From NCBI GenBank assembly GCA_964230645.1, contig CAXRHT010000001.1:832001-896000 (forward strand): 64,000 nucleotides of DNA, in the 5' to 3' direction. The position numbers were made by a program, and so were the translations under genes. Shown piece after piece: positions 10,229-35,458 of the stretch. The stretch is from Bdellovibrionales bacterium (GTDB lineage: Bacteria; Bdellovibrionota; Bdellovibrionia; Bdellovibrionales; JAGQZY01). The notes beneath the pieces are model-generated. The model was not told the origin of the DNA and made no database searches. It saw nothing but the letters and a program-made list of their open reading frames with translations. How positions within the stretch are numbered: position 1 is the first letter of the stretch; each line of letters begins with the position of its first letter.

Positions 10229-11161
10229 TCAGTAAATTTTTAAAACGACCATGACGACCAGAACGAGAGGAAAGTTGAGCTTCAAGAGCACGCATCCAAG
10301 AATAGTCAATAATAGAGGTGCTGTCCACCCACTCAATAAGCTCAAAGATAGGCCCAATAGAGCGGCTAAAACTAACTTTAAAAAGCCCTTTTGATGGAAA
10401 ATGAGACTGTAACTAATTAACAAAATATTAAGTCCTGTGATTCTAGCGTTATCCCTTAATTTGTCGAAGTGAGAAACCCTCTCCTCACTTCTGGGATAGT
10501 AAACATCAATAGCCACCTCTTTAACAGGAAATCCTCTCCACAAATAACGAACTAAAACTTCAATTTCAAAGTCGTATCTCTTCGTAAAAAATGAAATTTT
10601 CGATAATTCCTTTAAGGGATAGACTCGGAAGCCACTTTGAGAATCAGAAACCTTTGTGGAAGCCTGATACCACACCCAAAAATTTGAAAATTTTCGTCCA
10701 AACTTTGAAAGACCAGGAACATTTTTACCAAAACGTCTGGCTCCAATAATGATAGCCTCGGGCTCTTCCCTTGCTGCCTGCAACAGTGGAGCGATATCTT
10801 TAGCTAAATGTTGTCCATCAGCATCAATCGTAATGATGTGAGTGTACTGTTGAGCAAGGTTTCCAAGCGCCCAACTGAGGGCCGCCCCTTTTCCTTGGTT
10901 CTTTTCAAAACGCTTCACCTGTACTCTCTTCTCCGCTGACCCAGGTGTTGTTACACCGGATGGGGATTGGGAGAAAGCCTCCTGGCTCGGTTTCAAATCG
11001 TGTTTCTCTACAATCCCTCTGATAGTTTCACCATCGACTTTCGGATCGGAGCCGTCGTCGATCACCCAAATAGGAAAGTCCTGATGCTTTAAAACATCCT
11101 CAACCACATCATAAACTTTGCCTTGGCTATTGTAGGCTGGAATTACCACGCAAGGATTCAT
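10229..11161 (-). CDS. Glycosyltransferase family 2 (aryl-polyene cluster type) with short hydrophobic C-tail
   Basis: VIPAYN, IDDGS, NQGKGAA, IDADGQH, DSQSGFRVYP and RVSHF motifs. Confidence 0.9.
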   Translation of the reverse strand: MNPCVVIPAYNSQGKVYDVVEDVLKHQDFPIWVIDDGSDPKVDGETIRGIVEKHDLKPSQEAFSQSPSGVTTPGSAEKRVQVKRFEKNQGKGAALSWALGNLAQQYTHIITIDADGQHLAKDIAPLLQAAREEPEAIIIGARRFGKNVPGLSKFGRKFSNFWVWYQASTKVSDSQSGFRVYPLKELSKISFFTKRYDFEIEVLVRYLWRGFPVKEVAIDVYYPRSEERVSHFDKLRDNARITGLNILLISYSLIFHQKGFLKLVLAALLGLSLSLLSGWTAPLLLTILGCVLLKLNFPLVLVVMVVLKIY

Positions 11162-11163
11162 TC

Positions 11164-11949
11164 TTAAAAACTCTCATAGGAATGGGACTGACTCAATTGC
11201 AGAATTCTTTTTTGAATCTGATCGCTTACAGATTGACTGAGCTTCTCAGCCGAAGAAAATTGAGCAGAATCCACCGCAGGCAGTGACTCGATAATCAATG
11301 GAGCCTTTTTAGCGATCGCTAATTCCTCTTTTGGCCAAAGGTAATCACTCCCCCAGATCACAACGGGGATAACCGGAGAGCGGGTCTGTATGGCTTTTTG
11401 GAACGGACCCAGAGTGAAGCGAGAAAGTTTAGTCTCTCCAAAAGCAGACCGAGTCATCTCGGGGAAAACAAGAATTCGATCCTTCATTTCTAGACCTTTT
11501 CTAATATCTTCCATGGCCTTCCAATAGGATTCACTCCGGCCACGCTTAATGTAAACCATCCGCAGAAGCCAGGCGGCTTGCCCGAGTCCCGGAATCCAAA
11601 AAATCAAATTTTTAGTGAGCACCCGAACCCCTGGAATAAGCTCCAGCAATAAAAACACATCCAAGTGGGAGCGGTGATTGGCAACAAACAAAGCGCCTGT
11701 TTCATATTGCGCAATCTCTTTAGGCAAAGTGATTTTAAACTCCCCCACCCACCAAGGCTGAAAAAACTTTAACCATTTCACTCCCATGACCGTGATTCGC
11801 CCGGAAAGTTTTCTGGCGGAGAGACTGAAACGGGCGAGGAGGCTCACCGGCAAATTGAGAATAAAAATAGAAATGAGGCCAAGAGGAGCAATACAAAAAG
11901 CCAACCACAGCAGCGGAGATTTATACCTCTTGATTTTGACATTATTCAT
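11164..11949 (-). CDS. Lysophospholipid acyltransferase (PlsC-like)
   Basis: ANHRSHLD (NHx4D) and VFPEMTRS motifs; N-terminal TM. Confidence 0.88.
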   Translation of the reverse strand: MNNVKIKRYKSPLLWLAFCIAPLGLISIFILNLPVSLLARFSLSARKLSGRITVMGVKWLKFFQPWWVGEFKITLPKEIAQYETGALFVANHRSHLDVFLLLELIPGVRVLTKNLIFWIPGLGQAAWLLRMVYIKRGRSESYWKAMEDIRKGLEMKDRILVFPEMTRSAFGETKLSRFTLGPFQKAIQTRSPVIPVVIWGSDYLWPKEELAIAKKAPLIIESLPAVDSAQFSSAEKLSQSVSDQIQKRILQLSQSHSYESF

Positions 11950-12002
11950 TACTATTTAAATAGTCGTAAACAGCAGATTTGTCTACGATCAACAGGGATT
12001 TC

Positions 12003-13535
12003 ATGGACGCTCAAAAAACCGATATTCTGATCATTGGAAGTGGTATGTCCGCTTTAACCTCCGCGATCTTACTTTTAAGGAAAGGCTATAGTGTCAGAAT
12101 CTTAGAGGCCCACTACAAAGCGGGTGGCTATATGCATTCCTTTGAAAAAATGGGACACACTTATGACAGTGGTGCCCACTATGTTGGGGCTCTTGCTCCC
12201 CATGAACCTTTCTGGGCCCTACTCAATTATCTTGATGTTTATGATGAGTCCCTCTTCACTCCATTAGATGAGGAGGCCTTTGACTCTTTTTATTTCAAAA
12301 ACCAGCAAATAAAAGAGATTCAGTATGGAAAAGGCTATGATCGAGTGATTGAGCACTTTTGTGAAAAATTCCCTCAAGAAAGCGCTGGAATAAAGACTTT
12401 TTTTAAAACAATCCAAAACACGGCTCGTAATTTCCCCACTTACCATTTTTTGGTTAACTACGATCAATCTAAACTTCTCAAATCTCTTGAGACCAGTTTG
12501 CTTGAGGAAGCAAGAAAACACACTCAAAACCCAGAACTCCTCAATGCTTTCTTCGGCTACTGTGGACTGCACGGAGTCATGCCCGCTGATGTATCCTTTG
12601 GCCTGCACTCTATAATTGTTGATTCGCTGATCCGTAGTGGAGGTTATGGTTTTCGCGGGTCCGGGGACGCCCTGGTAAAAAAACTTGTAGAGAAAATTGA
12701 GACCCTGGGCGGTGAAATCCTACTGAAACAAAAAGTTACTTCTTTTGAGATTAAAGATAAAAAAGTGCAGAGCCTAGTTACCCAGAGAGGAACGGTTTTT
12801 GAAGCTGATCATTTTATCTTTAGCGGTCATCCAAAAGATATGATTGAAATGGCCGGTCCTGAGCACTTCAGAAAACTCTACACCAAACGGATCGGCAAAA
12901 CTCCAGACTCTATTGGAATCATGGGCATTTATGGGGTGGCAAAACCGGGAACTTTTGAAAACATCAAACGAAACTACTACCAGGTCACTACCCCTCTTCC
13001 CGAACATTTTGACCCTGATGAAAAACGTCCCCTCAGCAAAGACCCCATCATTAGTTTTGTCACATTCCCTGACCGGGAACTAAACCCTAAAACAGAGGAA
13101 GTCCCATTCAGCATCCATGCCCCTCAATTGTATTCTTGGGTTGAAGACTGGAAGAGCAAAAAAGCTTACAGCCGAGACAAAGACTATTTGAATTTTAAAG
13201 AAAAATTAACAGATTCCATTTTTGATTTCGTTGAGACAAGTGGTTTGAAAATAAAAGAAAACACACTCAAGTTCGAATCATCAACCAGCCTCACCAATAG
13301 ACGCTTTAATCTATCTCCTCTGGGCTCGGCTTACGGAATTTATCATTCCATGGATTATACCGGTGTCAGGGCTCTCAGTGGTAAGACCAGTATTGAAAAT
13401 CTTTTTATCACCGGTCAAAATACGCTTTTTCCAGGAATTATGGCCGCCTCCATCGCTGGCATTCGAACCACTGGTTTTTTAATTGGTATTAAAGAGACCA
13501 TCGCTGACATTAGAAAGGTGATGGACGGACAATAA
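12003..13535 (+). CDS. FAD-dependent oxidoreductase, phytoene desaturase/retinol saturase family
   Basis: IIGSGMS, GGYMHSF, YDSGAHYVG, GSAYGI and NLFITGQ motifs. ATG 12003 preferred over TTG 11979. Confidence 0.85.
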   Translation: MDAQKTDILIIGSGMSALTSAILLLRKGYSVRILEAHYKAGGYMHSFEKMGHTYDSGAHYVGALAPHEPFWALLNYLDVYDESLFTPLDEEAFDSFYFKNQQIKEIQYGKGYDRVIEHFCEKFPQESAGIKTFFKTIQNTARNFPTYHFLVNYDQSKLLKSLETSLLEEARKHTQNPELLNAFFGYCGLHGVMPADVSFGLHSIIVDSLIRSGGYGFRGSGDALVKKLVEKIETLGGEILLKQKVTSFEIKDKKVQSLVTQRGTVFEADHFIFSGHPKDMIEMAGPEHFRKLYTKRIGKTPDSIGIMGIYGVAKPGTFENIKRNYYQVTTPLPEHFDPDEKRPLSKDPIISFVTFPDRELNPKTEEVPFSIHAPQLYSWVEDWKSKKAYSRDKDYLNFKEKLTDSIFDFVETSGLKIKENTLKFESSTSLTNRRFNLSPLGSAYGIYHSMDYTGVRALSGKTSIENLFITGQNTLFPGIMAASIAGIRTTGFLIGIKETIADIRKVMDGQ

Positions 13536-13563
13536 AAAAAGCGCACCTAGTGGATGCGCTTTT
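13536..13563. terminator. Bidirectional intrinsic terminator
   Basis: AAAAAGCGCA-CCTAGTGGA-TGCGCTTTT between convergent genes. Confidence 0.75.
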
Positions 13564-13587
13564 AAATTAAATTTACAAACTAAAATA

Positions 13588-14064
13588 TTACTGACCAACA
13601 ACAAGCTCAGAAACTAGAGCGTCCATTTCTTCTTGATTGTTAGGTAGAGGATACATATTTGCACCCAGTTTCGTGGCTTTAAAAGCATCGCCCTCAACCG
13701 CAGTACTCATGAAAAGTGGAGTGAGAATAAAAGGCCAAATTAAAAAATAACCCCAACCTTTTTTACAACGAGGCTCAGAGGAATCACTGGCGTGCCAGCG
13801 AATATTTCCAATGGCGTTAGCACCTTTGGCTTTAGCATTATAAATGAGCTCTTGCACTGACCCACGGGCTTTTTCGGTGCAGTTATCCCAAATCGCTCCG
13901 CCATCTTCTCCTTCAACCATACCTAGATTTTCACCTTCGAATTCGCCAGCCTTAAGAGCCACTCCTTCTTCGCTAAAATCATTGTAATCGATTCTAGCCC
14001 TGTGGGTAGAACATGCACTGGCAAAAAATGCCACAACCAACAAATAGGAAAGTGTCTTTTTCAT
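13588..14064 (-). CDS. Lipoprotein, YbjQ/RcsF-like fold
   Basis: Lipobox ASAC; ELIYNAKAKGANAIGNI motif; paired Cys residues. Confidence 0.55.
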   Translation of the reverse strand: MKKTLSYLLVVAFFASACSTHRARIDYNDFSEEGVALKAGEFEGENLGMVEGEDGGAIWDNCTEKARGSVQELIYNAKAKGANAIGNIRWHASDSSEPRCKKGWGYFLIWPFILTPLFMSTAVEGDAFKATKLGANMYPLPNNQEEMDALVSELVVGQ

Positions 14065-14232: not shown

Positions 14233-14691
14233 CTATTCAAAGTAGACTTGAATTTCAGTTTCGGCCAGCAGAGTCTCGTCCCCGGGCACTCGCACTTCCC
14301 CACGAACGTAAGTCACAGGTAAAAGCTCTCGGATCACGCGAAGACTGACTTCCAGTTGACTGACTTTATCAAGATCAACACTTTCGAAGTTGGCCCGGCA
14401 AAATCGCACACCTGTGAGGTAGGTTTGGCTAGGAGGATCACTGAATTTATGAATCACTTGATAGGCCGCCTTAAGATAGCCAAAGCCTTGTGCGGTAAAC
14501 TCAATGGCCGAGGATGCCCGCAACTCATGACCGTCATTCACATACAAAGAGTCCTTTTTAATATCCACAACACATACGCCAGCCAAACCCTTATAGTCTT
14601 TTCCCACTTCGGCCACACGATTGACCCAGACCATAGGAGGTCTATGGGGAAGATAAGGAATTAAGTCTTTTATGAGCATATCTTCAGACAT
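14233..14691 (-). CDS. Hotdog-fold dehydratase partner (ApeP-like)
   Basis: YLPHRPPMVWVNRV and IEFTAQ motifs; located in the PKS cluster. Confidence 0.75.
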   Translation of the reverse strand: MSEDMLIKDLIPYLPHRPPMVWVNRVAEVGKDYKGLAGVCVVDIKKDSLYVNDGHELRASSAIEFTAQGFGYLKAAYQVIHKFSDPPSQTYLTGVRFCRANFESVDLDKVSQLEVSLRVIRELLPVTYVRGEVRVPGDETLLAETEIQVYFE

Positions 14692-15295
14692 TGCTAATTC
14701 TCTCTTTGGTTATGGCCGAGAAAGTAAATCCCTTCTCTGAGCCTCGCGCCAGAAACTGTTCTAAGCCTTTTAAAAATCCTTTTTGGAAGGCCGTCTTTTG
14801 ACGGTCATGAAGAAGAACAATATCACCGGATTGAAAATTGTAAAATGATTGCGTCCAAGAAAATGGCAAATTCGTATCAAAAAAACGTTTGTTCCAGTGC
14901 ACCCACGGTAAAGACAACTCACTCATGACGCGCATCAATGGAGGTGTAACAACCCCAGCCGGTGAGCGAAAGGCTACAGGAGACTCTCCTAATAAGTGAG
15001 TTAAGGTCTTATTTCCCTCAAGGATCCACTCTTTGAGGCGATCTTGCGACCTAAAAAAATGGGAATATTGATGATTCAGAGAGTGATCTCCAATGGAATG
15101 TCCCTTTTCTCGTATCCGCTCTAGCTCGCTAGGATTTTGCTTTGCTTTCTCGGCAATCACAAAAAAGGTGGCTTTTGCATCAAAGGCAGAAAGGCAGTCC
15201 AATACCTTTGGGGTAAAATCGGAGTCGGGACCATCGTCGAAACTCAGAAAAATTTCAGTTTCTTTTGTTGGAATGTGAGAGAGTGGGCGCTTCAT
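14684..15295 (-). CDS. Polysaccharide deacetylase (NodB/CE4)
   Basis: LSFDDGP, ATFF, HSLNH, FRSPAG and IVLLHD motifs. Confidence 0.9.
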   Translation of the reverse strand: MKRPLSHIPTKETEIFLSFDDGPDSDFTPKVLDCLSAFDAKATFFVIAEKAKQNPSELERIREKGHSIGDHSLNHQYSHFFRSQDRLKEWILEGNKTLTHLLGESPVAFRSPAGVVTPPLMRVMSELSLPWVHWNKRFFDTNLPFSWTQSFYNFQSGDIVLLHDRQKTAFQKGFLKGLEQFLARGSEKGFTFSAITKERISNV

Positions 15296-15296
15296 T

Positions 15297-15923
15297 TTAG
15301 TTCACTCGAAAACCAATTTCCATATGCTGGAAATTTATTTTGAAACTCTGCTTACTATTGATAGCAGAGTAGAGTTCTTCAAAATGACCGACTCCCTTAA
15401 GTTCACTAGTCTCAGAAATTATCTCTAGAGTGCTCAGAGATTCTTCCGTCAGATAAAGAAATTCTCCTTCTGTTTTAACAGAATAATCAGAGACTTCTCC
15501 CAGTTCTTCCGGGAAGCTATCCGCATGAATCATCAAAACTGGGTTTCTATTAGCAACTGCTTGTACAAGGGCCGCGGCCATCACTTCCTTTTGGGGCTCA
15601 TCGATCGCACAAAGAGAGTAGGTGGGCCCAAGAATTTGTAACTGCTGACTGATAAAACCAGTGGTCGAATGGTGTAGACTGTTTTGAAAAAGGAAGGGAC
15701 GCCCCACGCCGTTTTGAGCCAGTCCTTTTAAGTAATTAAAAGTGGGCTCGATTTCGCCGTGCAGGGATCCGAGAAATACTTCCGTTTTGTTCGGCAGATC
15801 TTGGGGAAGAGTTTTTTCTAACCCCCCAATAAGAATGCGCATTAAAGTCGTGGCTTTGCGAAACCGGGGATCAAATGCCGCTTCTTGCTTGGGATCGTAT
15901 TTCCAGAAGAGATTGGCACTCAC
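15297..15923 (-). CDS. Beta-ketoacyl synthase chain-length-factor-like protein
   Basis: GSLHGE and PFLFQNSLHHSTTG motifs, no catalytic Cys, directly downstream of a KS. Confidence 0.75.
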   Translation of the reverse strand: MSANLFWKYDPKQEAAFDPRFRKATTLMRILIGGLEKTLPQDLPNKTEVFLGSLHGEIEPTFNYLKGLAQNGVGRPFLFQNSLHHSTTGFISQQLQILGPTYSLCAIDEPQKEVMAAALVQAVANRNPVLMIHADSFPEELGEVSDYSVKTEGEFLYLTEESLSTLEIISETSELKGVGHFEELYSAINSKQSFKINFQHMEIGFRVN

Positions 15924-15924
15924 T

Positions 15925-17091
15925 TCACGCCTCCCGCCCCAAGATTAGACTGGCGTTAATCCCACCAAAGCCTAAAGTATTTTTTAAGATATAGGATACT
16001 TTTGAGTTCTGGTTATCTCTAGCCATATTGATGGTGAAATGTTTTGGCTCGGAAAAAGCACTCCCTAAAATTTTTTGCCTTTTTAAAGCTTCACAACAAA
16101 GGAGGGTCTCCCATACTCCAGAGGCGGCCAAGCTATGACCGTGAATACCTTTTGTGGAAGAAACCGGAGCTTTTATCTCTAGCTGCTTTATAGCAGCCGC
16201 TTCCGCCCGATCATTTTGAAGAGAGCCAGTGCCGTGGGCGTGAACCCAATCAATATCTTCCGAAGTGAGTGCAGCATCTTCAAGGGCTTGCGAGATTGAA
16301 TGTAGTGGACCACTGCCATCAGGCTTTGGGGCTGTCATCGAATATCCATCACTCGCACAGCCATAACCAACAATTTTCACCGAGTGCTCCCGACGTTTTT
16401 GCCTTTCAAGAACAAAAGCTCCGACCGCCTCGCTCAGGCAAATTCCACTCCTGGTCTCGTTAAAGGGAAGGCAGTCCTCTCCATTAACCAATGATAAAGA
16501 AGAAAACCCAGTCCGAGTTAAATCACATATTTGCTCAGCTCCCAAAATCACACAGCGGTCTACCAAACCAAGGTTCAACCAGTTTCGCCCTAAACCGATG
16601 GCTTGTGTTCCTGCCGCACAGGCTGATGAAACAATTTGGATGGGACCTTGATGCTCCAATTGGTGGCGAATCTCCTGAGCAAAGCCTCCAATGGGCTGAT
16701 ACAAAATACCGTTAGTTTTTTCCCCTTGAAAATGATTGATTAATTCACTTTCCCACACTCGAGTGAGTCCTGTGGTCGTAGCGATGATAAGGCCATCGCG
16801 AGGGCCCCATTTTAATTGACTTTTTTCCTCAAGGCTCCTGAGACAAAAAAGAGACCAAGCCAGTAACTTATTCTCTGCAACCTCGTTTAGAAGAGTTTTT
16901 CTGGAAAAAAGATTTTCAGTTCCAAGGCAGTGCTTTGAATGTTCTTCAGGGATATAAAGCAGTCCGTTTTCGAAGTGTCTTTTTTTTTCTTCGCAGGCTT
17001 CCCACAAGCTCTCGATCCCTACACCATAAGGATGAATACTCGCGTGTTCGTTGATAAAAACAGGAGCTATATTTTTAATGGCTCGTTCCAC
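15925..17091 (-). CDS. Beta-ketoacyl-ACP synthase (KS1)
   Basis: SSACAAG, HAHGTG, GHSLAASG and GFGG: complete Cys-His-His triad. Confidence 0.92.
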   Translation of the reverse strand: MERAIKNIAPVFINEHASIHPYGVGIESLWEACEEKKRHFENGLLYIPEEHSKHCLGTENLFSRKTLLNEVAENKLLAWSLFCLRSLEEKSQLKWGPRDGLIIATTTGLTRVWESELINHFQGEKTNGILYQPIGGFAQEIRHQLEHQGPIQIVSSACAAGTQAIGLGRNWLNLGLVDRCVILGAEQICDLTRTGFSSLSLVNGEDCLPFNETRSGICLSEAVGAFVLERQKRREHSVKIVGYGCASDGYSMTAPKPDGSGPLHSISQALEDAALTSEDIDWVHAHGTGSLQNDRAEAAAIKQLEIKAPVSSTKGIHGHSLAASGVWETLLCCEALKRQKILGSAFSEPKHFTINMARDNQNSKVSYILKNTLGFGGINASLILGREA

Positions 17092-17359
17092 TTTTTTCGT
17101 TCATTACAAAGTCAACGATTGTCGAGATCGACTGAAAAGCCTCTTTGCCCTTTTCAGCATTAGGAACCTTAACATCGTATTTGTTTTCGATGGCCACAAT
17201 AATTTCTAGGATATCCACAGAATCAAGACCGAGTCCATCTTGGTAGAGAGAGGCATCATCCTTAATGGAGTCCACAGTAAGGTGTTGCAAATTGACAGCT
17301 TCAATAATTAAGCTTTTCACGTCTTCTGACAATTTTTCTCTATCCATAACAAACTCCAT
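17075..17359 (-). CDS. Acyl carrier protein (ACP1)
   Basis: GLGLDSVDILEI phosphopantetheine site; small and acidic. Confidence 0.92.
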   Translation of the reverse strand: MEFVMDREKLSEDVKSLIIEAVNLQHLTVDSIKDDASLYQDGLGLDSVDILEIIVAIENKYDVKVPNAEKGKEAFQSISTIVDFVMNEKSGTSH

Positions 17360-17397: not shown

Positions 17398-18096
17398 ATG
17401 AGACTCGTCAGCACTGGGCCCCTAATGCAGCACATTAAGCAGAGGCAATCAGGCCTATTTCCATGGAGGATAGGCTTTCAAGGTTCTATCAATTTACAAT
17501 CTCAGCTTATCAATTGCCGAACCAACAGTTTCATCCTCTCATCACTTATCTTACTGATTCAGGCTTTCAGTTTCTCGGGACATTGCGAAATAAGCCAAGC
17601 GGCCAGAGACTCCTTAAAACCCCTTCAAAATATCAATCGCCTCAAAGCTAATTTTACCCAAACTCGCCATGTCAGTAAATGGCAGACAGACGTGAAGACA
17701 AGCGGAAAATTTCAATTTAGTAGAATGCCCCATAAATCGGTTCTGTGGGAAATTCTCGATCCCAGTTATATGGCTGTGCGGATGGATGACAATGGGCTTT
17801 TCCTTAAATCCGGTAAAAACTCGACCTGGAAATCCATTAAAAGTGAGCGCATGGCAGAACAGATGAGAAACATTTTCTCTTGGCTCTCCTTTGACCTTGC
17901 TGCCATGGAAAAATCTTTTCACATAAAAAACCATAAAAACAATGAGTTTATCCTTTCTCCCAAACAAGATGACTCTCATTTTGAGCACATGCATCTTTTT
18001 CTCAATCCCGACAACCTTGTCGAAAAAATTAGACTGAACGAGAAAAACGGCGATTACATCTTGATTGAATTTAGCACCTCTCAGGTCCAGAGATGA
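17398..18096 (+). CDS. LolA-like carrier protein (start uncertain)
   Basis: ANFTQTR, TSGKFQF, VLWEILDP and EKNGDYILIEF motifs; adjacent to the MMPL gene. Confidence 0.75.
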   Translation: MRLVSTGPLMQHIKQRQSGLFPWRIGFQGSINLQSQLINCRTNSFILSSLILLIQAFSFSGHCEISQAARDSLKPLQNINRLKANFTQTRHVSKWQTDVKTSGKFQFSRMPHKSVLWEILDPSYMAVRMDDNGLFLKSGKNSTWKSIKSERMAEQMRNIFSWLSFDLAAMEKSFHIKNHKNNEFILSPKQDDSHFEHMHLFLNPDNLVEKIRLNEKNGDYILIEFSTSQVQR

Positions 18097-23105: not shown

Positions 23106-23161
23106 TATTGACCTTAAGACCATATGGAAAAAATTATCTTCCTAACTGGTATTGTTTTGCT

Positions 23162-23193
23162 AGCCACAGTCTCCTTGAGACTGTGGTTTTTTT
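23162..23193 (+). terminator. Intrinsic terminator
   Basis: AGCCACAGTCTC-CTT-GAGACTGTGGTT followed by a T-run. Confidence 0.85.
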
Positions 23194-23306
23194 ACGTTGA
23201 GTACTAAAAAAAGGTGATTTCGAGGTGTAAACACTTCAAAACAGGGCGAATTCGTTGAGATTCTGCAAGGGAAATCCTAGAAATTAAACCTCTCAAAGGG
23301 ACAAAC

Positions 23307-24080: not shown

Positions 24081-24889
24081 TAGACACTCAACGGGCAGGT
24101 AAAAAAATATGTGAAAACTCAGCTTTTGACTCTGTGGTTGAACATCTAAAGTTTGTCATTTCGACCTATCTGGAAGAAAAACCTCATATGAGCCTTGGAG
24201 CCATTAGCAAAAAATGCTCTGTTAGCGAGCCCACTTTGCGCAGGATCATGAAGGGACAAATAAAAACTTTCCCAACAGTCACAACAGTGCTCGACATACT
24301 CACTTATGTAACCAATGAAAAGAAAACCTCAAAAATAATCTCTCTCTACCCAGGCCCCATCGCAGATTTTCTCAAAGAGATGGCCCCTTACGTGGAAGAC
24401 ACTCAAACCGATTACAGTGTTGAAATTAACCAAGAACTCAAACAACCCGTTAAATATTTAATTTACAAACTGGCTTCAAACTCAGCGGGTGTGACCAGAC
24501 AAAAAGTCAGCGACCTTTTCGGTGCCCACGGTTTAAAAAGTTTGGATTCACTCCAAGATAAGGCTTATATCGAAGAACGCGCCGGTAAGTACTTTAGTAC
24601 CTCAAAAAGCTTCACTTCCAGTCACGAAAACTTTGTGGAAAATTTCAAAACAGTCTCAGAGTTTCTAAAACCCGACAAACTCTCCCCAAGAAGCCGCCTC
24701 AATCCCCTCTTCAGAAACTTCTCAAACTCAGTCTCCCCGGAAGCCTTCGAAGAAATCCTAAAACTCCAAAAAAAGACCATGGCCCGTATAGCCCAAATCA
24801 TGACCAACGAAGAAAACCAAGGCGAAATCCCCCTCTTCCTACTACTAGCCATAGACACCCTAGACACAAAACCCCCCTCAGAATTCTAA
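24077..24889 (+). CDS. HTH protein, TIGR02147/DUF4423-like
   Basis: N-terminal HTH (SLGAISKKCSVSEPTLRRIMKG), central winged-helix-like segment, C-terminal SVSPEAFEEI. ATGA overlap with the upstream gene. Confidence 0.6.
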   Translation: MIDTQRAGKKICENSAFDSVVEHLKFVISTYLEEKPHMSLGAISKKCSVSEPTLRRIMKGQIKTFPTVTTVLDILTYVTNEKKTSKIISLYPGPIADFLKEMAPYVEDTQTDYSVEINQELKQPVKYLIYKLASNSAGVTRQKVSDLFGAHGLKSLDSLQDKAYIEERAGKYFSTSKSFTSSHENFVENFKTVSEFLKPDKLSPRSRLNPLFRNFSNSVSPEAFEEILKLQKKTMARIAQIMTNEENQGEIPLFLLLAIDTLDTKPPSEF

Positions 24890-24921: not shown

Positions 24922-25085
24922 CCATTGCCTGGCTTGCGAGAGCCGAGGGGCTTGTCCCAAAGGCTCGAGCCGCGAGCGTTGCGTATCTTGGGTTGCGCCC
25001 AGAAGTGGGGCAATCCCGGAGACGAAATGCACCCGTCGGCATGCCTTGGGGACAAGCCCCTCGGCTCTCGCAAGCCAGGCAATGG
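24922..25085. repeat. Long palindromic hairpin element 2 (43-bp arms, 78-nt loop)
   Basis: 24922-24964 is the reverse complement of 25043-25085 with 1 mismatch. GC-rich, between convergent genes. The arm core resembles hairpin 1. Confidence 0.9.
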
Positions 25086-27225: not shown

Positions 27226-27963
27226 ATGTCTCAAAAATGGGTTTTAGTGACCGGGGCTTCAGGGGGAATTGGAAAAGCCATAGCCAAGCGCTTAGCCAGC
27301 GACGGTTTTTCATTGTTACTTCACTACAACTCAAATGAAGAGGCGGCCCAAAACGTTCTTGAAGAAATAAAAAATCAAGGCGGCCGTGGGCAATTGATCC
27401 AGTTTAATGTCTCCGACTCTTCACAAGTTGAAAAATCTCTCGACGCTTTTTTTCAAAACTTAGAAGGTGAGTTTTACGGGCTCGTCAATAATGCTGGAAT
27501 TCACATTGATACCATGGCTGGTCTGATGAGTGATGAAGACTTTGATAAAGTCATTCAAACAAATCTCTACGGCGCCTTTTATATTTTAAGATATGGTCTT
27601 AAAAAACTCATGCGCAATCGTAAGGGCTCAATTGTCAATATGGCCTCTCTTTCTGGACAAGTGGGAAATGCCGGACAGCTTAATTATGCCGCCAGTAAAG
27701 CCGGACTCGTTGCCATGACAAAAACCTTAAGTGCTGAGTTAGCGAAACGAAACATCCGCGTCAATGCCGTCTCCCCTGGCCTTATTGAAACCGACATGGT
27801 CACTGATATTCCAGGCCTAGAAAATATGGTGAAACAAATCCCTCTACAAAGAATGGGACAGCCTGAAGAAGTCGCTGGTGCCGTCTCATTTTTATTTTCT
27901 GAGGACAGCACCTATATCACTGGTCAAACGATTAGTGTAAACGGAGGACTGTTTCCGGCATGA
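27226..27963 (+). CDS. fabG: 3-oxoacyl-ACP reductase (ApeQ-like)
   Basis: [17 protein letters not shown] and NAVSPG motifs. Confidence 0.93.
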
Positions 27964-29198
27964 ATCAAAGAGTTTTTATCACAGGCACAGGCATAATCTC
28001 TTCACTCGGAAATGATGTGGAAACGGTTTTCAAAAACCTTGTCTCGGGACAATCCGGTGTTAAAGCCATGCCCGACTGGAAGCAATACAATGGTTTAAAA
28101 TCTCACCTCATGGCTCCCGCCTGGAAATATGACATCGCAAGCATCCCACGCAAAAAACGACGAAGCATGTCCCCTATGGCGGAAATGGGAGCTCTTGCGA
28201 CTTTTCAGGCCATGAAACAAGCAGGCCTTCCCGATGAAAACCCTTGGGAATCCATCGAAGCCTTGCGCTCTTTATTTATTATGGGTTCCACCTCAGGAAG
28301 TCCAGCCACTCTCGAGGCTCACTTTCAGAAACTTTTCGAAAAAGGGGGACCTGAAGGACAAACTTCCACCGCTTTTTTCAAGATCATGAATCATTCGGTC
28401 CCAGCCAATGTCGCCCTAGCAACAGACTTCAGAGGTCCTCTTCTCTCAACCGGCTCCGCCTGTAGCACAAGTTCACAAGCAATGATCCAGGCTTGGGAAA
28501 TGATCCAATCAGGACTTTATGACTTTGCCATCGTCGGTGGCGCTGATGAAGCCTTTTACACCAGTGCGGCAATCTTTGATACCGTTCAAGCCGCTTCCAC
28601 AGGATACAATGATCGGCCCGATGAATCCCCTCGCCCATTTGATAAGGCTCGCGACGGTTTGGTTATTTCTGAAGGCGCTGGAATGATGATTTTAGAATCG
28701 GAAAAATCAATAGAAAAACGTGGAGTGAAACCACTGGCCGAATTTCTCGGTGGTGCTTACTACTGCGACGGGCAACACATGAGTCAACCGAGCCCGGAAT
28801 CCATGGTGAGTACAATGAACTGGGCTCTTGAGCGCGCAAAATTAAAACCGGAAGGCATTGATTATATAAATGCTCACGCCACCTCTACAGTGCTTGGTGA
28901 CCTCCAAGAAGCGCAGGCTATTTCTGAGGTCTTTGGCGCTGAAACTCCGGTGAGTAGTTTAAAAGGCCACTTTGGTCACTCACTAGCGGCTTGTGGAACC
29001 ATTGAGGCCATTTGTAGTATCGAAATGATGAAAGCCGGCCTTGTCATTAAAAATAGAAATCTTACCGAGACCGATCCGGCCTTAGCTCCTATCAATGCCT
29101 TGTCTAAAAACCAAGAAGGCCGTTACAATAGAATACTGAGTAATAATTTTGCTTTTGGCGGGATGAACACAAGTTTCATCATCGAAAATTGTGAGTGA
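27960..29198 (+). CDS. Beta-ketoacyl-ACP synthase II-like (KS2, ApeR-like)
   Basis: [29 protein letters not shown] and NFAFGG motifs. Confidence 0.93.
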
Positions 29199-29202
29199 AT
29201 TT

Positions 29203-29463
29203 ATGGAAAAACAAGAATTAATAACCAGAGTGAATGAAGTCATGGTAGAGGGTTTCGAGCTTGATCCTCAGGATCTGAAACCAGAGGCCAAGATTGTTGA
29301 CGACCTTGAACTCGATAGCCTCGATGCCATCGATATGCTTGTGTACTTAGAGGAAAAAATTAACATCAAAGTAGATCCTGAGCGCTTTCGCCAAGTTCGA
29401 ACTCTGAGTGATGTATACGATGTGGTGGAAGAGGTTCTTCAGGAGTCAGGCAAAACCAAATGA
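29203..29463 (+). CDS. Acyl carrier protein (ACP2)
   Basis: DLELDSLDAIDM motif. Confidence 0.93.
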   Translation: MEKQELITRVNEVMVEGFELDPQDLKPEAKIVDDLELDSLDAIDMLVYLEEKINIKVDPERFRQVRTLSDVYDVVEEVLQESGKTK

Positions 29464-29804
29464 AGTTGAGCGAGTTTTTCCTGGTTACTAACACCTGTCC
29501 AAAGGAGTTTCCAGTCCTTGCCATTATCGGTTGATGCGTTGACCTCGACCGTATGATTGGGTTGAACCAAAGAAATAAACTTCGATCTTTTCATCTCAAT
29601 TTTATTGTAGGTAATACTTGGACAAATATTTTCGAGGAGATAGAAACTGATATCAATAATACTAACCGCCGGTAAAATTGGATTTCCTGGAAAATGGCCT
29701 TCGAAAGAAGGGAGATTCTCACTCACCTCAAAGTTTGCAACCAGATGGGATTCTGATTTTTCTTTGATTTCAAATTTTACTAAATCACGAATTCTTTTAT
29801 CCAC
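29439..29804 (-). CDS. FabA/FabZ-like dehydratase (ApeI-like)
   Basis: FEGHFPGNPILPAV and KFISLVQP motifs. Probable GTG start at 29804; the 3' end overlaps ACP2 by 25 bp. Confidence 0.85.
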   Translation of the reverse strand: MDKRIRDLVKFEIKEKSESHLVANFEVSENLPSFEGHFPGNPILPAVSIIDISFYLLENICPSITYNKIEMKRSKFISLVQPNHTVEVNASTDNGKDWKLLWTGVSNQEKLAQLHLVLPDS

Positions 29805-29889
29805 CTCTATGTTTGTGCCAAGCCACACTCTTGCGGTCAAGGCATTGCTTCGTGACTCTCTCTTTTCTCTCACTCAGAGGAGAGACTAA

Positions 29890-30963
29890 ATGAGCTATAT
29901 CCAAGACTTTTCTTGCGCCACATGTCACGGCCTGGGCTCTGAAAGTCTTTGGGAAAGCCTTATGAATGGCGTAATTCAGCCCTCCAAGCAAGAGGGAAAC
30001 TTTCAGCTTTTAAGTCCTAATCGCGAGCCCAACACCTCTTATCGTGAAAACTTTAAAAAAATACTGAGCCACTTAGTTAGAGATTGGAGTTTTGATCAAG
30101 AGAAAAAATTAGGCCTTATTTTTGGCTCAACAAAAGCATTAGTGGAAGACTTTGTGTGGGAGGAAAATTTTCAAGAAGACTGTGATCCTTTCAGCCCTAT
30201 TTTAGATGATCTAGAAGATGGACTTGGAGTTGTCTTTTCTCAAAGAGCCATCATCAGCAATGCTTGCACCTCAAGCCACGGCGCCCTTGAACTGGCGCAG
30301 AGGTGGCTAAAACGTGAAATTTGTGATGAAGTTCTTGTGGTGGCTGGTGATTTGATTGGGCCCTTTACCCTTGAGGGATTTAAAACATTGAGAGCCTTGA
30401 GTCCCAGTGGGATTGCCCGTCCTTTTGATATCAATCGCGACGGTTTAATTCTTGGGGATGGGATGGGGGCTGTCCGCTTGAGCCGTGAAAAACATGACTC
30501 CCTCTTCAAACTTCAATCTGTTTACAGTCTCTGTGAGGGGGTCTCAGCCACAAGACCTGATACAAGCGGTAAAAATTTGGCCACTTGTTACAAAAAAGTT
30601 TTGAGTAAAACACCTGAGCTAGTCATCACCCATGGCACAGGCACCCAATACAATGACCAAACCGAAGCTCAGGCCCTCTGCCAAACAATGAAAAAAGAAA
30701 AGTTTCCTAAAATCACCGGCAGCAAGTGGAGTGTTGGTCACAGCTTAGGAGCCAGTGGCTTGATTGATCTTTGCTTAGCTCTTGAGTGCCTTAAAAGACA
30801 ATCCACACCTGGAATTAATAGCCTCGAACGCTGCGACCTTGAAATTGCGCCCTTTCTTCTTAATAAAACTCAAGAGATGACTATTGAGTCTGTCCTCATC
30901 TCTTCTTTAGGTTTTGGAGGAATGTGCTCAGCCCTTGAATTGGTAAGGGAAACCGGACGATGA
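29890..30963 (+). CDS. Beta-ketoacyl-ACP synthase (KS3)
   Basis: ISNACTSS, PFDINRDG, THGTGT, GHSLGASG and GFGG motifs. Confidence 0.9.
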   Translation: MSYIQDFSCATCHGLGSESLWESLMNGVIQPSKQEGNFQLLSPNREPNTSYRENFKKILSHLVRDWSFDQEKKLGLIFGSTKALVEDFVWEENFQEDCDPFSPILDDLEDGLGVVFSQRAIISNACTSSHGALELAQRWLKREICDEVLVVAGDLIGPFTLEGFKTLRALSPSGIARPFDINRDGLILGDGMGAVRLSREKHDSLFKLQSVYSLCEGVSATRPDTSGKNLATCYKKVLSKTPELVITHGTGTQYNDQTEAQALCQTMKKEKFPKITGSKWSVGHSLGASGLIDLCLALECLKRQSTPGINSLERCDLEIAPFLLNKTQEMTIESVLISSLGFGGMCSALELVRETGR

Positions 30964-31409
30964 GAATTTCATTTCACAAATCACAATTTAAAATGAGTCA
31001 GCCTCTTGAGGAGCCAGCCTGGAGCTCACAGGTCAATCGCTGGTATCAGCTTGATGGCCCTGCTCTTGCCCTTTGCCAACTTTTTTTCGAGCACGATTTG
31101 GATTTTGACCATCTGGTTCTAGCCTCTCCGGAGGGCTCCAATGAGACCGACCGAGACTTTGCGCAAACAGGGGCTCAGAGGGCTCAAAAGTTCGTTCACA
31201 CTCTACCCAATATTCGAGCCTCTATGGCTCTTCAGCTACGAGAGGAGCCCTGCCCCTTTATTTGCTTTATGGAAGGTGCAAAAACCCTGGAAAAAGCCCT
31301 CAAGGAGTTTTATGCTCTAGCCCTTGAGAATCAAAGACCGGCCCTGGTGAGTGTCTACAAGCTTGGCCCGAACGAATATGAGGCTTGGGCGGCCATCGCC
31401 CGGAATTAG
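30960..31409 (+). CDS. Short chain-length-factor-like partner of KS3
   Basis: SNETD...FVHTLPNI motif of KS N-terminal-like partners; ATGA-coupled to KS3. Confidence 0.65.
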   Translation: MRISFHKSQFKMSQPLEEPAWSSQVNRWYQLDGPALALCQLFFEHDLDFDHLVLASPEGSNETDRDFAQTGAQRAQKFVHTLPNIRASMALQLREEPCPFICFMEGAKTLEKALKEFYALALENQRPALVSVYKLGPNEYEAWAAIARN

Positions 31410-31427
31410 AATTGGAGTGAGTGCGGA

Positions 31428-33002
31428 ATGGAAAAAATGGTCCCTGTAAATTTAAATGGAGAAGGATTGGATTTTTCCCAATTAACGCCCCTGATCTTTG
31501 ATTCCAAATTCAAGGCTCAGGTGAGTCTTCCAGACTCAAAAAAAATTAATGCAAACCACAAAAAGTTACTTGAGGCGATTGATCGCAATGAAACCATTTA
31601 CGGCGTTACCACAGGATTTGGTGACAGCTCCAGACGTGTGCTCACTCCCGCCAAAGCAGAGGATTTGCAAGCTCATCTCATTACCTATCTTACCTGTGGA
31701 GTGGGCTCTCTTTTGCCAGAGCCGGTATGCCGAGCCGTTACGATTTTTAGACTTCACTCTCTTTCCCAAGGAATTTCGGCGGTCAGCTTTGAGCTGCTTG
31801 AAAGAATGAAATGGCTGGTTGAAGAAGATATTGTTCCTCAAATTCCTTCGCAAGGATCTCTGGGTGCTAGTGGTGACCTTGTTCCTCTGGCCTATCTTGC
31901 GCAAGTGGTGCAAGGAAAGGGGCGTATTTGGCACAAGGGTGTCAGTAAAGACATGGCTTCTCTATGTAGGGAAATGCACGTTCCTGAGTACAAGCTAAAA
32001 GCCAAAGAAGGTTTAGCACTTGTTAACGGCACAAGCGTTATGGCGGCCTACAGTTTTTACTGTAACAAAATTATCAAATCCCTCATTGAGCTAACAACAA
32101 AAACCACCGCGCTTTGCGTGTTAGGGCTTGAGGGGCGCAAAGACGCTTTTAATGCCTTAATAAACTCGAAAGCCAAAAGGTTTCACGGTCAATCTAAAAT
32201 TGCCGAAGATATTTTTTCTCTTCTCAGCCAAGAAGATCATCAAACCCAAAAGCCAGAGAAGGCTCTCAACAATGAAGAGCGTGCTCACACTGTGCAAGAC
32301 AAATACTCCATTCGCTGCGCTCCTCAGATTTTAGGCCCCATCTATGACACCCTTAAAATGAGTGAAGAGTGGACTCAATTAGAGGCAGAAGGTGTTTCGG
32401 ATAATCCTGTCATCGATGAGGGTGACCAATTTTCAATGGGTGGAAACTTCTACGGTGGATACATATCTCATGCCATGGACTATCTAAAAATCTCCATGGC
32501 TCACCTTGCGGATATGGTGGACCGTCAGTTTATGTGCTTGATAGATGAGTCCACCAATCGAGGTTTACCTCCTAATCTTGCCGACTGGCCGAATATTACC
32601 GAGGAGGAACGCTTTCTGAATCACGGGTTGAAGGGATTAAACCAAGCCATGTCAGCCCTCACATCCGAAGTTATGGCTCAGTCCAATCCTGGAGGCATTC
32701 ACTCTCGCTCCTCGGAATCACACAACCAGGACAAAGTGAGCTTAGGTTTAAGTGCCTGCATTCAGATGAATAATATGTTTGATAACCTCTACACTCTTTT
32801 ATCCATCCACTTGATCGGCTGCGCTCAGGCCATAGACCTCAGAGAGCGCACATTAAAAAGTAGAGAGCTTAAAGAACTCTATGATCTCGTCCGTAAGGTC
32901 AGCCCTAAGGTCACAGAAGATCGCGCCATGGATTTTGAAATTGCTGCGCTGAAATCAGAGCTTAAATTAAGGTCCGGAGTTTTTAATGACAAATCACTTT
33001 GA
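31428..33002 (+). CDS. Aromatic amino acid ammonia-lyase (PAL/TAL/HAL family)
   Basis: YGVTTGFG, GSLGASGDL (MIO-forming ASG), KEGLALVNGT, QDKYSIRC and HNQDKVS motifs. Confidence 0.93.
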   Translation: MEKMVPVNLNGEGLDFSQLTPLIFDSKFKAQVSLPDSKKINANHKKLLEAIDRNETIYGVTTGFGDSSRRVLTPAKAEDLQAHLITYLTCGVGSLLPEPVCRAVTIFRLHSLSQGISAVSFELLERMKWLVEEDIVPQIPSQGSLGASGDLVPLAYLAQVVQGKGRIWHKGVSKDMASLCREMHVPEYKLKAKEGLALVNGTSVMAAYSFYCNKIIKSLIELTTKTTALCVLGLEGRKDAFNALINSKAKRFHGQSKIAEDIFSLLSQEDHQTQKPEKALNNEERAHTVQDKYSIRCAPQILGPIYDTLKMSEEWTQLEAEGVSDNPVIDEGDQFSMGGNFYGGYISHAMDYLKISMAHLADMVDRQFMCLIDESTNRGLPPNLADWPNITEEERFLNHGLKGLNQAMSALTSEVMAQSNPGGIHSRSSESHNQDKVSLGLSACIQMNNMFDNLYTLLSIHLIGCAQAIDLRERTLKSRELKELYDLVRKVSPKVTEDRAMDFEIAALKSELKLRSGVFNDKSL

Positions 33003-34215
33003 TGTGATTGTTGCCGGTGCTGGCCCAGGAGGAAGTACTGTCGCCACATTACTGGCTCAAAAAGGTTTACATGTCGCTCTCTTTGAAAAGGAAGAGTTTC
33101 CTCGATTTAAAATTGGTGAGTCTCTTCTCCCTCATTCCATGGATATTTTAAAAGAGTCAGGAGTTTTTGAAAAAATTAATTCCGGCCAATACATTAAAAA
33201 ATACGGCGCTTCCTTTATTTCTTGGGATCACCCAGAGTCTGCCCTTTATTTTGAGTTTGCCAACGGCCTTGATCAAGACCATGCCTTTGCCTTTGAAGTC
33301 CCAAGAGCCCCGTTTGATCTTGATTTACTCACCCACGCCAAAGAAAACGGAGTGGAAGTGTTTCAACCGATTAAAATTGAGCAAGTGAATTTCGAAAAAG
33401 AAAAAGTCTCTGTCCACACGACCAAGGAAAGCTTTAGCAGCTCTTATTTTGTCGATGCCTCGGGGCGAAGTGCTCTATTGGGAACCCAATTTAAAAGTCG
33501 AGAAAAAAATCCTCACTTCATCAATAACATCGCTGTCTATAATCATTATAAGGGTGTCTCCAGAGATATTCAAAAAAGTGAAGGAGATATTATTATTGGG
33601 ATTCTGCCAGAGCAGTCCTGGTCCTGGCATATTCCTTTTAAAGGAGAAACCACTTCCGTTGGAATTGTTTTTTCTAAGGAGAGTTTTAAAAAGTTTAAAA
33701 ATGAAGATGATAAAATCCTTGCCTGTATGAACGAACATCCCAACTTCAAAGACATCATGAAAAATGCCACAGCCCTAAATAAAGAAGGGCAGGCGGCCAA
33801 TTATTCCTACAGCAGTGGGCGAAAAATTTCGGATCGCTGGATTATGCTAGGAGATGCAGCAACCTTTCTAGACCCCGTATTTTCTTCTGGAGTGCATATT
33901 TCACTTATTTCCTCTCGCATGGTAAAAGACGTGGTGTTGGAAGCTTACCAGAAGCAGAGCTTACTCAGTGAAACAGTCGCAGGAAAAAACTACGAGCAAG
34001 ACTTGCAAAAAGGAGTGGATCGCTTTCAGTCTCTCCTTCTTATTTTTTACAAGACAGCATTTTTCCAACATATGAAAAAGGTGATACAGACGGAAGCGGT
34101 TTACAAAGCCTTCACCTCAGCTTTTAGTGGCGATATGTGGAATGACCAAAACTTCCTCTTTAGGATGGGAGTTTTAAAAGACGGGAAACTACCAAATGAA
34201 GACTATTCTTTATAA
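32986..34215 (+). CDS. Flavin-dependent halogenase-family oxidoreductase
   Basis: GAGPGG, PRFKIGESL, IKKYG, DASGR, WSWHIP (WxWxIP) and GDAATFLDPVFSSG motifs. Confidence 0.8.
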   Translation: MTNHFDVIVAGAGPGGSTVATLLAQKGLHVALFEKEEFPRFKIGESLLPHSMDILKESGVFEKINSGQYIKKYGASFISWDHPESALYFEFANGLDQDHAFAFEVPRAPFDLDLLTHAKENGVEVFQPIKIEQVNFEKEKVSVHTTKESFSSSYFVDASGRSALLGTQFKSREKNPHFINNIAVYNHYKGVSRDIQKSEGDIIIGILPEQSWSWHIPFKGETTSVGIVFSKESFKKFKNEDDKILACMNEHPNFKDIMKNATALNKEGQAANYSYSSGRKISDRWIMLGDAATFLDPVFSSGVHISLISSRMVKDVVLEAYQKQSLLSETVAGKNYEQDLQKGVDRFQSLLLIFYKTAFFQHMKKVIQTEAVYKAFTSAFSGDMWNDQNFLFRMGVLKDGKLPNEDYSL

Positions 34216-35458
34216 AGGCTATCACAGCCAACGCGCCTTTGACCTCTTTTGTGAGGCACAAGAAAAAGGGGATCTTATGATCTTCCTCCCTCCCTTAATG
34301 AATCGCTACGAGTTTGTCCCCTTTCTTCCCGAATCAGAGATTCTGATTGAGGGAGACTTATGGCAAACACGTCCGAAAGGCTTGAAAGGCGAGTCTCAAG
34401 AGTATCAAAAAAAGCCTGTGGCCGGAGTTTTCTCCTCCGGAACCACCAATAACTCTCGCCTCATCCTATACACCAATGAAAATATTAGCTCCTCCGTGAA
34501 AGGTATTTTCGCACTATTTGAAGACGAGAGCTTTGATAATCTTTTTTGCTACCCACAGCCCTATCACACCTTTGGCCTGACCTTGGGATATGGCGCTTGC
34601 TATTTTTTAAAAAAGAATTTGATCTTTGCTGAGGGAAAGTACAGCTCCGATTATCATAAAAAGTGGCTTGAGTCAGAACCCAATACCATCACCCTTGGAA
34701 CCCCCACCCACTTTCACGATCTACTCGCTTGGGTCGAAGAGCAAGGAGAAATTCCACCGCACACTTATAGCTGTATCATTGGCGGCGCTCAGGTTCCGAT
34801 GAGCCTTTGGCAAAGTGTCAGAAGTGAGCTGCAAATTGAAAAACCTAGCATTGGCTATGGCTCCTCGGAAGCTTCCCCTGGAATTTCCCATTTACCTCCA
34901 GGTCTTGCACCGATTGAGGACGGCGAAATCGGGGAAATCTTACCTCATGTGGAAATGAGCCTGACCGACAGTGGAATACAATTTAGTGGCCCCAATCTTT
35001 GTCATGCGATCATCGAAGATGAGAAAATTGAATTTCCATCACGCCACGTGATTCCCGACCTGATTGAAAAAAGAGAAGCCGACGGAAAGCTCGTCTACCG
35101 CTCACGCCTGGACTGGATTCTCAATCGGGGTGGCGAAAAATTTCCCATTGAAAAACTAGAAAAACAGGTTTTTGAAAAAGTCGGTATTGATATTTTAGGC
35201 TTTGGACTTCCCGATCCTAGGCTTGGTGAAGAACTTGGTCTACTTATCAAACGCAGAAGAGAAGCCCCACAAATTACCATGGAAAATGTTTACGACACTC
35301 TAAAAGAGCTCACTGATCGAGATTTTGCTCAAAAAGCTATTGTTGTTGATGATTTTCCACTCAGCCAAACCCATAAAGTGGATCGCAAAAAGGCTCGCAT
35401 CGTCTATTTAAATGAAACTAAAGATAAAGAAGAATCTGATAATGAAGAGGACTCCTAG
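34196..35458 (+). CDS. AMP-binding acyl/aryl-CoA (or ACP) ligase, short form
   Basis: FSSGTT, GYGSSE, RGGEK, DPRLGE and KVDRK motifs. Confidence 0.85.
   Translation: MKTILYKGYHSQRAFDLFCEAQEKGDLMIFLPPLMNRYEFVPFLPESEILIEGDLWQTRPKGLKGESQEYQKKPVAGVFSSGTTNNSRLILYTNENISSSVKGIFALFEDESFDNLFCYPQPYHTFGLTLGYGACYFLKKNLIFAEGKYSSDYHKKWLESEPNTITLGTPTHFHDLLAWVEEQGEIPPHTYSCIIGGAQVPMSLWQSVRSELQIEKPSIGYGSSEASPGISHLPPGLAPIEDGEIGEILPHVEMSLTDSGIQFSGPNLCHAIIEDEKIEFPSRHVIPDLIEKREADGKLVYRSRLDWILNRGGEKFPIEKLEKQVFEKVGIDILGFGLPDPRLGEELGLLIKRRREAPQITMENVYDTLKELTDRDFAQKAIVVDDFPLSQTHKVDRKKARIVYLNETKDKEESDNEEDS

Follow-up and report, generated by a model that had tools for sequence, protein, structure and literature searches.

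The closest described systems to the locus considered here are the flexirubin (flx) clusters of Bacteroidota, for example flxA-Y plus darAB in Chitinophaga pinensis and the cluster of Flavobacterium johnsoniae, and the aryl-polyene lipid (APEL) clusters of Escherichia coli and Xenorhabdus doucetiae, which share with it chain-building, lipid-anchoring and export genes and have no resorcinol genes. Our locus is a cluster of about 25 kb in a Bdellovibrionales bacterium (genome G000; 3.78 Mb in three contigs, C1 to C3, 99.59% complete). It spans positions 10229-35458 of the window, by which we mean the whole stretch of 64,000 nucleotides that was analysed (G000:C1:832001-896000). In the APEL preprint the aryl polyene is carried on GalNAc-phosphate-glycerol, and it is proposed that ApeD and ApeJ build the anchor and that ApeM, ApeL and ApeN export the product (10.1101/2020.12.19.423268). 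The xanthomonadin and arcuflavin clusters of Xanthomonas and Azoarcus, as described in PMC3949708, also place a halogenase-family gene, a deacetylase, LolA and an exporter beside aryl-polyene genes, and xanthomonadins are halogenated and lack resorcinol; by description they are set apart from our cluster by a chorismate-derived hydroxybenzoate starter and, in the case of arcuflavin, by darAB. That source presents polyene clusters with and without dialkylresorcinol genes as widespread, darAB are treated as separable from the flavobacterial aryl-polyene (APE) genes in PMC5932025, and PMC13635244 includes Bdellovibrionota among the phyla expressing APE clusters. A literature search, with subscription journals outside its range, found no published description of this architecture or its product.

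The cluster falls within the aryl-polyene family and, judging from its genes, functions in the manner of an APEL cluster that has extras of the flx type. Our preferred reading, to which we give a probability of about 0.62, is that it would make a halogenated aryl-polyene glycophospholipid of the APEL type, without dialkylresorcinol, and that this lipid would be exported to serve as a protective pigment in the outer membrane; halogenation of the product is probable. An APEL-type lipid would be the most economical product because the window contains the APEL parts and no resorcinol source. Every pathway open reading frame (ORF) is intact with its catalytic motifs according to the ORF list, Pfam and NCBIfam, and all the gene classes listed in a preliminary description of this locus were recovered with family matches. 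The E. coli CFT073 ape cluster and the flx cluster of Persicobacter psychrovividus plasmid pPP6, whose lyase, LolA and LolB exceed the flexirubin NCBIfam cut-offs (FlxA, LolA2, LolB2), served as references, counterparts were assigned by BLAST and profile comparison, and flx gene letters follow a table legend of PMC12968099. The genes are as follows (KS, ketosynthase; CLF, chain-length factor; ACP, acyl carrier protein; GT2, family 2 glycosyltransferase).

10229-11161, minus: stand-alone GT2 glycosyltransferase (PF00535), DADGQH motif intact
11164-11949, minus: PlsC/ApeD-type acyltransferase (PF01553), NHRSHLD motif
11979-13535, plus: CrtI/phytoene-desaturase-family flavoprotein, FlxV counterpart (Pfam/NCBIfam; 26% identity with the Persicobacter gene across 510 aa)
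13588-14064, minus: sporadic accessory lipoprotein, seen in G008, G167 and L071 but missing from the cluster regions of G003, G004 and G005
14233-14691, minus: ApeP-like hotdog dehydratase (PF22817 under cut-off; profile E 7e-11 to ApeP)
14684-15295, minus: polysaccharide deacetylase, FlxP counterpart (PF01522), FDDGP and H-x3-H motifs
15297-15923, minus: CLF1, ApeC/FlxO-like (PF13723; profile E 2e-10 and 3e-9)
15925-17091, minus: KS1, ApeO/FlxN group by tree (top NCBIfam PRK09185), C-H-H intact
17075-17359, minus: ACP1, ApeE-like, LDSVD (37% to ApeE, 45% to Bacteroidota ACP)
17398-18096, plus: LolA-like carrier (PF03548; LolA2_flexi 62 bits against a cut-off of 125), real start probably further downstream
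18093-20246, plus: MMPL/ApeM-type exporter, about 10 hydrophobic segments (profile E 1e-45 to the Bacteroidota and 1e-26 to the E. coli exporter)
20243-21835, plus: C45 autoproteolytic N-terminal-nucleophile acyltransferase/hydrolase, FlxW counterpart (NF040521 above cut-off), Cys170, N-terminal anchor
21771-22394, plus: lipoprotein of LolB fold, counterpart of ApeN/LolB2, with the Cys codon of the lipobox at 21879
22668-24889, plus: three-gene insert outside the pathway
25092-27065, minus: fusion of degenerate GT2, DUF2062 (PF09835) and LpxL-type acyltransferase (PF03279), counterpart of ApeJ and of FlxE+FlxT
27226-27963, plus: FabG/ApeQ/FlxB-type ketoreductase (Pfam, NCBIfam, reference comparison)
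27960-29198, plus: KS2, ApeR-type (top NCBIfam PRK09116), C-H-H intact
29191-29463, plus: ACP2, ApeF-like, LDSLD (NF003757 above cut-off; 49% to ApeF)
29439-29873, minus: ApeI-like hotdog dehydratase (profile E 4e-17 to ApeI), antisense within a plus-strand operon
29890-30963, plus: KS3, sister of the extra Bacteroidota flx ketosynthase, C-H-K-H invariant
30960-31409, plus: CLF2, short FVHTLPNI partner of KS3 (profile comparisons)
31428-33002, plus: aromatic amino-acid ammonia-lyase with methylidene-imidazolone (MIO) motif ASG (PF00221), NQD, YL at the substrate-switch site; FlxA model 320 against 700 bits
32986-34215, plus: flavin-dependent halogenase-family protein with GAGPGG, KKYGA and WSWHIP; top PDB matches include 5buk, ChlB4 and PltA
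34196-35458, plus: short adenylate-forming acyl-CoA/ACP ligase (PF00501), SSGTT and YGSSE motifs

As the preliminary description had supposed, the architecture is flexirubin-like. Counterparts exist in the G000 cluster for 20 of the 22 Persicobacter genes, the methyltransferase and thioesterase being the two without; for the adenylation enzyme the counterpart is functional only. The likeness comprises three KS and their two CLF partners (the flx-specific pair among them), the lyase, ketoreductase, two ACPs and two dehydratases, and also LpxL, GT2-DUF2062, PlsC, MMPL, LolA/LolB-like proteins, deacetylase, CrtI-like enzyme, C45 and the adenylation enzyme. Features regarded as flexirubin traits are thus divided: the third KS with its FVxTLPNI partner, C45 (FlxW), the CrtI-like protein (FlxV) and the deacetylase (FlxP) are present, whereas darA plus darB, a FlxA-type tyrosine ammonia-lyase and the methyltransferase FlxJ are not. 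Unlike flx clusters, that of G000 is arranged in several divergent operons with MMPL and PlsC on separate genes, and its lyase and ligase are not orthologous to those of Bacteroidota. FlxJ was not found by a search with G310 as positive control; an FlxJ-like methyltransferase occurs in both G310 and G029. Of the 18 ape genes, 13 were matched (ApeC, D, E, F, I, J, L, M, N, O, P, Q and R). The APE core named in the Fig. 1 legend of the APEL preprint (10.1101/2020.12.19.423268) is represented by the ApeO/ApeR-type KS pair with intact triads, a CLF (ApeC), ACPs (ApeE/F), dehydratases (ApeI/P), ketoreductase (ApeQ) and transporter (ApeM), and the predicted APEL functions by ApeD, the ApeJ GT2/acyltransferase, with its GT2 function on a separate gene, and LolA/LolB-like ApeL/N. 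Beyond the APEL clusters, G000 has the extra KS-CLF pair, an ammonia-lyase starter enzyme, a halogenase, the CrtI-like protein, C45 and the deacetylase.

The three KS have their triads as first described, with the motifs VSSAC, HAHGT and GIHGH in KS1, GSAC, NAHAT and HFGH in KS2, and ISNAC, ITHGT and SVGH in KS3, where C126, H248, K279 and H284 were unchanged in 30/30 homologues. In an IQ-TREE phylogeny (36 KS selected out of 88 in a FastTree run), KS3 was sister to the extra, flexirubin-specific KS of Bacteroidota (98/98), and KS2 clustered with ApeR (100/99) and not with a Bacteroidota KS. Each of KS1, KS2 and KS3 formed a single Bdellovibrionota clade (support 98-100); this, together with GC and GC3 that agree with the flanks (cluster GC 0.433, flanks 0.443 and 0.431), gives no support to a recent transfer from Bacteroidota. 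CLF2 lies directly after KS3 and aligns to the FVYTLPNI gene of the Bacteroidota flx cluster with an hhalign probability of 93%. Neither CLF2 nor the MMPL protein had a Pfam match at cut-off, and their identification comes from profile comparisons; no significant similarity was found between the CLF2 and KS3 profiles, and their putative pairing rests on adjacency and homology. Two further details were corrected: both hotdog proteins are present, the second however on the minus strand inside a plus-strand operon, an antisense orientation kept in relatives, and the LpxL fusion, also present, starts with a degenerate GT2 domain.

The cluster lyase forms a clade of its own apart from FlxA (100/99; tree of 22 rows) and carries the NQD motif as in phenylalanine and tyrosine ammonia-lyases. 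Its switch site has Y in every cluster-type lyase covering the position and F in three Bacillota relatives; for the switch residue we assume the rule that H denotes Tyr and F denotes Phe. A second, separate lyase (HutH-like) is encoded on C2. A different cluster type, in which an FH-motif lyase accompanies GT2, a large MMPL and LpxL, was seen in Desulfobacterota, Spirochaetota and others (L082-L112). The ligase gave no match to the Persicobacter ligase, hence is not an orthologue of the Bacteroidota AMP-binding gene, and matched ApeH weakly. In the halogenase-family protein GxGxxG, the catalytic lysine and WxWxIP, which we take to be the defining motifs of flavin-dependent halogenases, are all present and conserved, and among solved structures its nearest relatives are halogenases, ChlB4 and PltA for instance, which act on carrier-bound substrates. 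Both flavoproteins also match reductase-type families (the geranylgeranyl-reductase superfamily and the CrtI family), so that they might act as reductases on a non-aromatic or reduced unusual acyl lipid; alternatively, the cluster might be silent or decaying in G000, given its patchy occurrence (5/12 congeners), one insert and one dead domain. We consider this pair of explanations unlikely, since no pathway ORF is broken and catalytic motifs are in place, the halogenase keeps W-x-W-x-I-P and the conserved lysine, and lyase and ligase are adjacent or nearly so in almost all cluster copies.

The occurrence of the cluster was surveyed in 401 genomes of the Bdellovibrio phylum; as this set includes related, hence non-independent, genomes and many fragmented ones, the figures are counts and not tests. 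The lyase matched 35 genomes at E 1e-82 or better, from which 31 (E 3e-130 or better; about 8%) were counted as carrying the cluster; G175, where the match is cut at a contig end, was kept separate and three at 35-40% identity were dropped. Synteny, viewed directly in part of the 31, is conserved across dozens of genomes, and because of this a chance grouping of the genes is excluded. In a set of 80 lyase loci kept of 337, 49 had 44-75% identity and 47 of these had other cluster genes nearby. The nearest relatives of the lyase come from records labelled Bdellovibrionales or Pseudobdellovibrionaceae. The cluster is therefore not unique; it is a phylum-specific variant of a phylum-wide family. 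The rarity implied by the preliminary description is not supported, both on this count and because a non-resorcinol acceptor is known for the E. coli and Xenorhabdus APELs, and the literature already describes clusters that have darAB and others that lack them (PMC3949708).

The preliminary description was right that darAB, a methyltransferase, a thioesterase and a phosphopantetheinyl transferase are missing from the window; one phosphopantetheinyl transferase and one thioesterase-like protein are encoded outside it. Absence of darAB from a window is insufficient, however, because in C. pinensis darAB are unlinked from flx (PMC3992019). DarB makes a cyclohexanedione that DarA aromatises (PMC13748660). 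Profiles for DarA, DarG and DarH were built from six Bdellovibrionota darA-darB-darG-darH operons, which match by construction. The DarA proteins were recognised by their place in darB-darG-darH operons and no NCBIfam DarA model matched them; the name is thus presumed from context. A six-frame hidden Markov model search with tblastn found no darA, darG or darH in G000 (best E 0.61 for DarA, 0.089 for DarG, none for DarH), and because darA was not found we do not consider this a flexirubin cluster. DarA was likewise absent from five close cluster-bearing relatives (0/5), a search run without a positive control; the search of cluster genomes across the phylum had one, and there 27/31 had no full-length DarA match, G184 having only a weak partial one.

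This genome-wide check added one thing to the first picture. Among four candidates in G000 for a ketoacyl-ACP synthase of type III (KAS III) is a DarB-like fusion, missed previously, at G000:C1:511552-513417, about 330 kb from the cluster, in which a ketosynthase is fused to a heme-oxygenase-like (diiron-oxidase) domain. In the interval G000:C1:511552-516451 (L031:11552-16451), DUF6999 and then an RND/MMPL-like gene come after it, and a cytochrome-P450-like ORF is close by. In principle this protein, which is StlD/DarB-like (E 1e-66 to StlD, 313 bits with the DarB model), could supply a resorcinol or cyclohexanedione in trans for a flexirubin-like ester, with the oxidase replacing DarA, as the unlinked darAB of C. 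pinensis would allow; its long form occurs in 4/31 cluster genomes against about 1.4 expected from 18/401. We regard this as very unlikely. The fusion is below both curated cut-offs (362 against 450 and, for the DarB model, 313 against 550), its gene belongs to an operon of the form KAS III-oxidase-DUF6999, and a comparable grouping of KAS III with a redox enzyme on a Pseudoalteromonas replicon has no aryl-polyene genes within the 17 kb viewed. Moreover, the congeners G003 and G004, with lyases 68-75% identical, lack the fusion, and 14/18 long-form genomes have no cluster-type lyase.

Across the phylum the DarB model matched 24/401 genomes, none above cut-off: six stand-alone genes in darA-darB-darG-darH operons (G030, G352, G338, G163, G167 and G029; L117-L122) and 18 longer forms. 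The preliminary description had overlooked that such an operon lies elsewhere in 4/31 relatives; another four cluster genomes have the long form and 23 have neither. A DarB-like gene was not seen in any of the 80 lyase loci with flanks up to 10 kb. In the remaining two of the six genomes, the dar operon adjoins a lyase-less copy of the cluster (G029) or E. coli-type aryl-polyene genes (G338), and the six genomes may make true flexirubin-like esters. Most of the six operons have ORFs resembling ABC transporters nearby, together with an ACP and a KS. DarB matches on plasmids were rejected as darAB, having no DarA beside them, and on two Bacteroidota plasmids with flx-type clusters no darB match was found in the plasmid sequence, chromosomes not being searched.

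For the lipid anchor, the stand-alone GT2 is 35% identical to the N-half of E. coli ApeJ and matches the profile of the relatives' fused GT2 at E 1e-97, and the PlsC-type protein shares 31% identity with ApeD and 34% with the PlsC domain found in the Bacteroidota MMPL fusion. Most relatives have GT2, DUF2062 and LpxL in one protein, with the GT2 motif pattern matched in 20/22, whereas in the fusions of the genus of G000 the motif is lost (6/6) and an intact GT2 gene stands apart from the fusion. It is likely that the stand-alone GT2 replaces the dead domain, and as an intact gene was kept while the fused domain decayed, glycosylation appears to be under selection and still needed. The outer-membrane export kit proposed earlier is supported by MMPL, LolA and the predicted LolB-fold lipoprotein. 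The model of the lipoprotein had a mean confidence (pLDDT) of 90, with LolB as top Foldseek match (E 1.6e-6); a single-sequence model reached a pLDDT of 36 only. LolA2/LolB2 are linked to flexirubin loci in PMC11885536. The LolB2 model NF053540 matched nothing in G000 and, since the LolB-fold lipoprotein is present, appears too narrow here; a match to NF053538 turned out unrelated, and NF053545, with no match in any control, was uninformative.

C45 occurs in 23/401 genomes; each of these has the cluster lyase, and 19 lack darA. Its nucleophile Cys was retained in 12/13 aligned homologues, and C45 and the CrtI-like gene occurred together in 11/11 fully viewed C45 clusters and were both missing from four fully viewed C45-less ones; a Bdellovibrio strain with a complete genome (L076) has the C45-less layout in the stretch viewed. 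FlxW is proposed to be a polyene-resorcinol ligase (PMC3992019). The glycolipid might then be only a carrier, from which the anchored C45 transfers the polyene outside the cytoplasm to another acceptor, giving a new class of ester or amide, and the association of C45 with the cluster, largely without darA, favours such a role. We hold this to be possible but doubtful: no acceptor-making gene was found conserved beside the cluster; C45 is missing from 9/31 cluster genomes and so does not belong to the core; in G029 darAB adjoin the cluster, yet there is no C45; and C45 could be a mere hydrolase or editing enzyme. Equally tentative is the wider idea that Bdellovibrionota own an old flx-type subfamily, in which the polyene is built on a glycolipid carrier and moved by C45 to a non-resorcinol acceptor, darAB being optional.

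Under the preferred APEL-type reading, the lyase would convert tyrosine (or phenylalanine) to a coumarate (cinnamate) starter, which the ligase would load onto ACP1. Together with FabG and both hotdog dehydratases, KS1-CLF1, KS3-CLF2 and KS2 would extend it, presumably to a polyene because no enoyl reductase is encoded, and the halogenase may modify the carrier-bound ring. PlsC would acylate a lysophospholipid from ACP2, the stand-alone GT2 would add an amino sugar to which the LpxL domain esterifies the polyene, and the deacetylase would trim. MMPL, LolA and the LolB-fold lipoprotein would carry the lipid outward, and the anchored C45 and the CrtI-like enzyme may be involved in late remodelling. 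The division of labour among the KS and the protective role are carried over from known APE systems. Several observations weigh against this scheme. C45, the CrtI-like enzyme, the deacetylase and the third KS pair are foreign to APEL clusters, so the end product may go beyond an APEL. ApeA, the ApeB methyltransferase, ApeG and ApeK have no cluster counterpart, that of the loader ApeH is weak, and APEL clusters have two KS only where there are three here. The YL switch motif equals that of no aligned enzyme, the related Bacillota lyases having FL. All six darA-operon genomes carry aryl-polyene genes, so the pathway seems compatible with resorcinol, and identity to the reference proteins is only 20-49%.

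The genes at 22668-24889 were excluded as pathway members by their paralogues on C2 and C3 and their absence from 4/5 other congeneric clusters; among the six congeneric clusters they sit inside that of G000 and G004 only. They have no Pfam or NCBIfam matches, and the genome has a comparable trio at C3:647737-651214 as well as a pair at C3:613586-615216. A 164-bp intergenic palindrome between convergent genes (24922-25085) folds as one long hairpin, and its inner 60-97 bp recur at 26 further genome sites, 23/27 sites being outside long ORFs; it resembles repetitive extragenic palindromes or miniature inverted-repeat elements, with no Rfam match found. Scans of the window found no tRNA and no Rfam match, a promoter and terminator scan of the cluster gave chance level only, and its divergent intergenic regions yielded no common motif. 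A metallo-beta-lactamase-fold gene of the glyoxalase II/sulfur-dioxygenase type (9520-10218), 10 bp downstream of GT2, adjoins the cluster also in G003 and G005 but not in G004. A spore-photoproduct-lyase-like radical S-adenosylmethionine gene (39256-40371), 4 kb from the cluster, adjoins it in G004 too and is possibly a second function in protection from ultraviolet light.

The cluster belongs to one of the commonest bacterial cluster families, and surprise is accordingly limited. If the preferred reading is true, predatory Bdellovibrionota would make an outer-membrane aryl-polyene lipid that has not yet been described chemically. If instead C45 transfers the polyene to a non-resorcinol acceptor, this would be a new class of halogenated pigment in predatory bacteria, the YL-type lyases would be a new clade, and FlxW would be no dedicated polyene-resorcinol ligase; the retention of C45 in 19/23 C45 genomes without darA is in any case a useful point on FlxW. 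The phylum offers natural comparisons, with against without darAB and C45, CrtI-like enzyme and halogenase against methyltransferase, which could test the role of FlxW and the reason for the complete glycolipid-assembly kit in flx clusters, and the Bdellovibrio strain of L076 provides a route to bench work.

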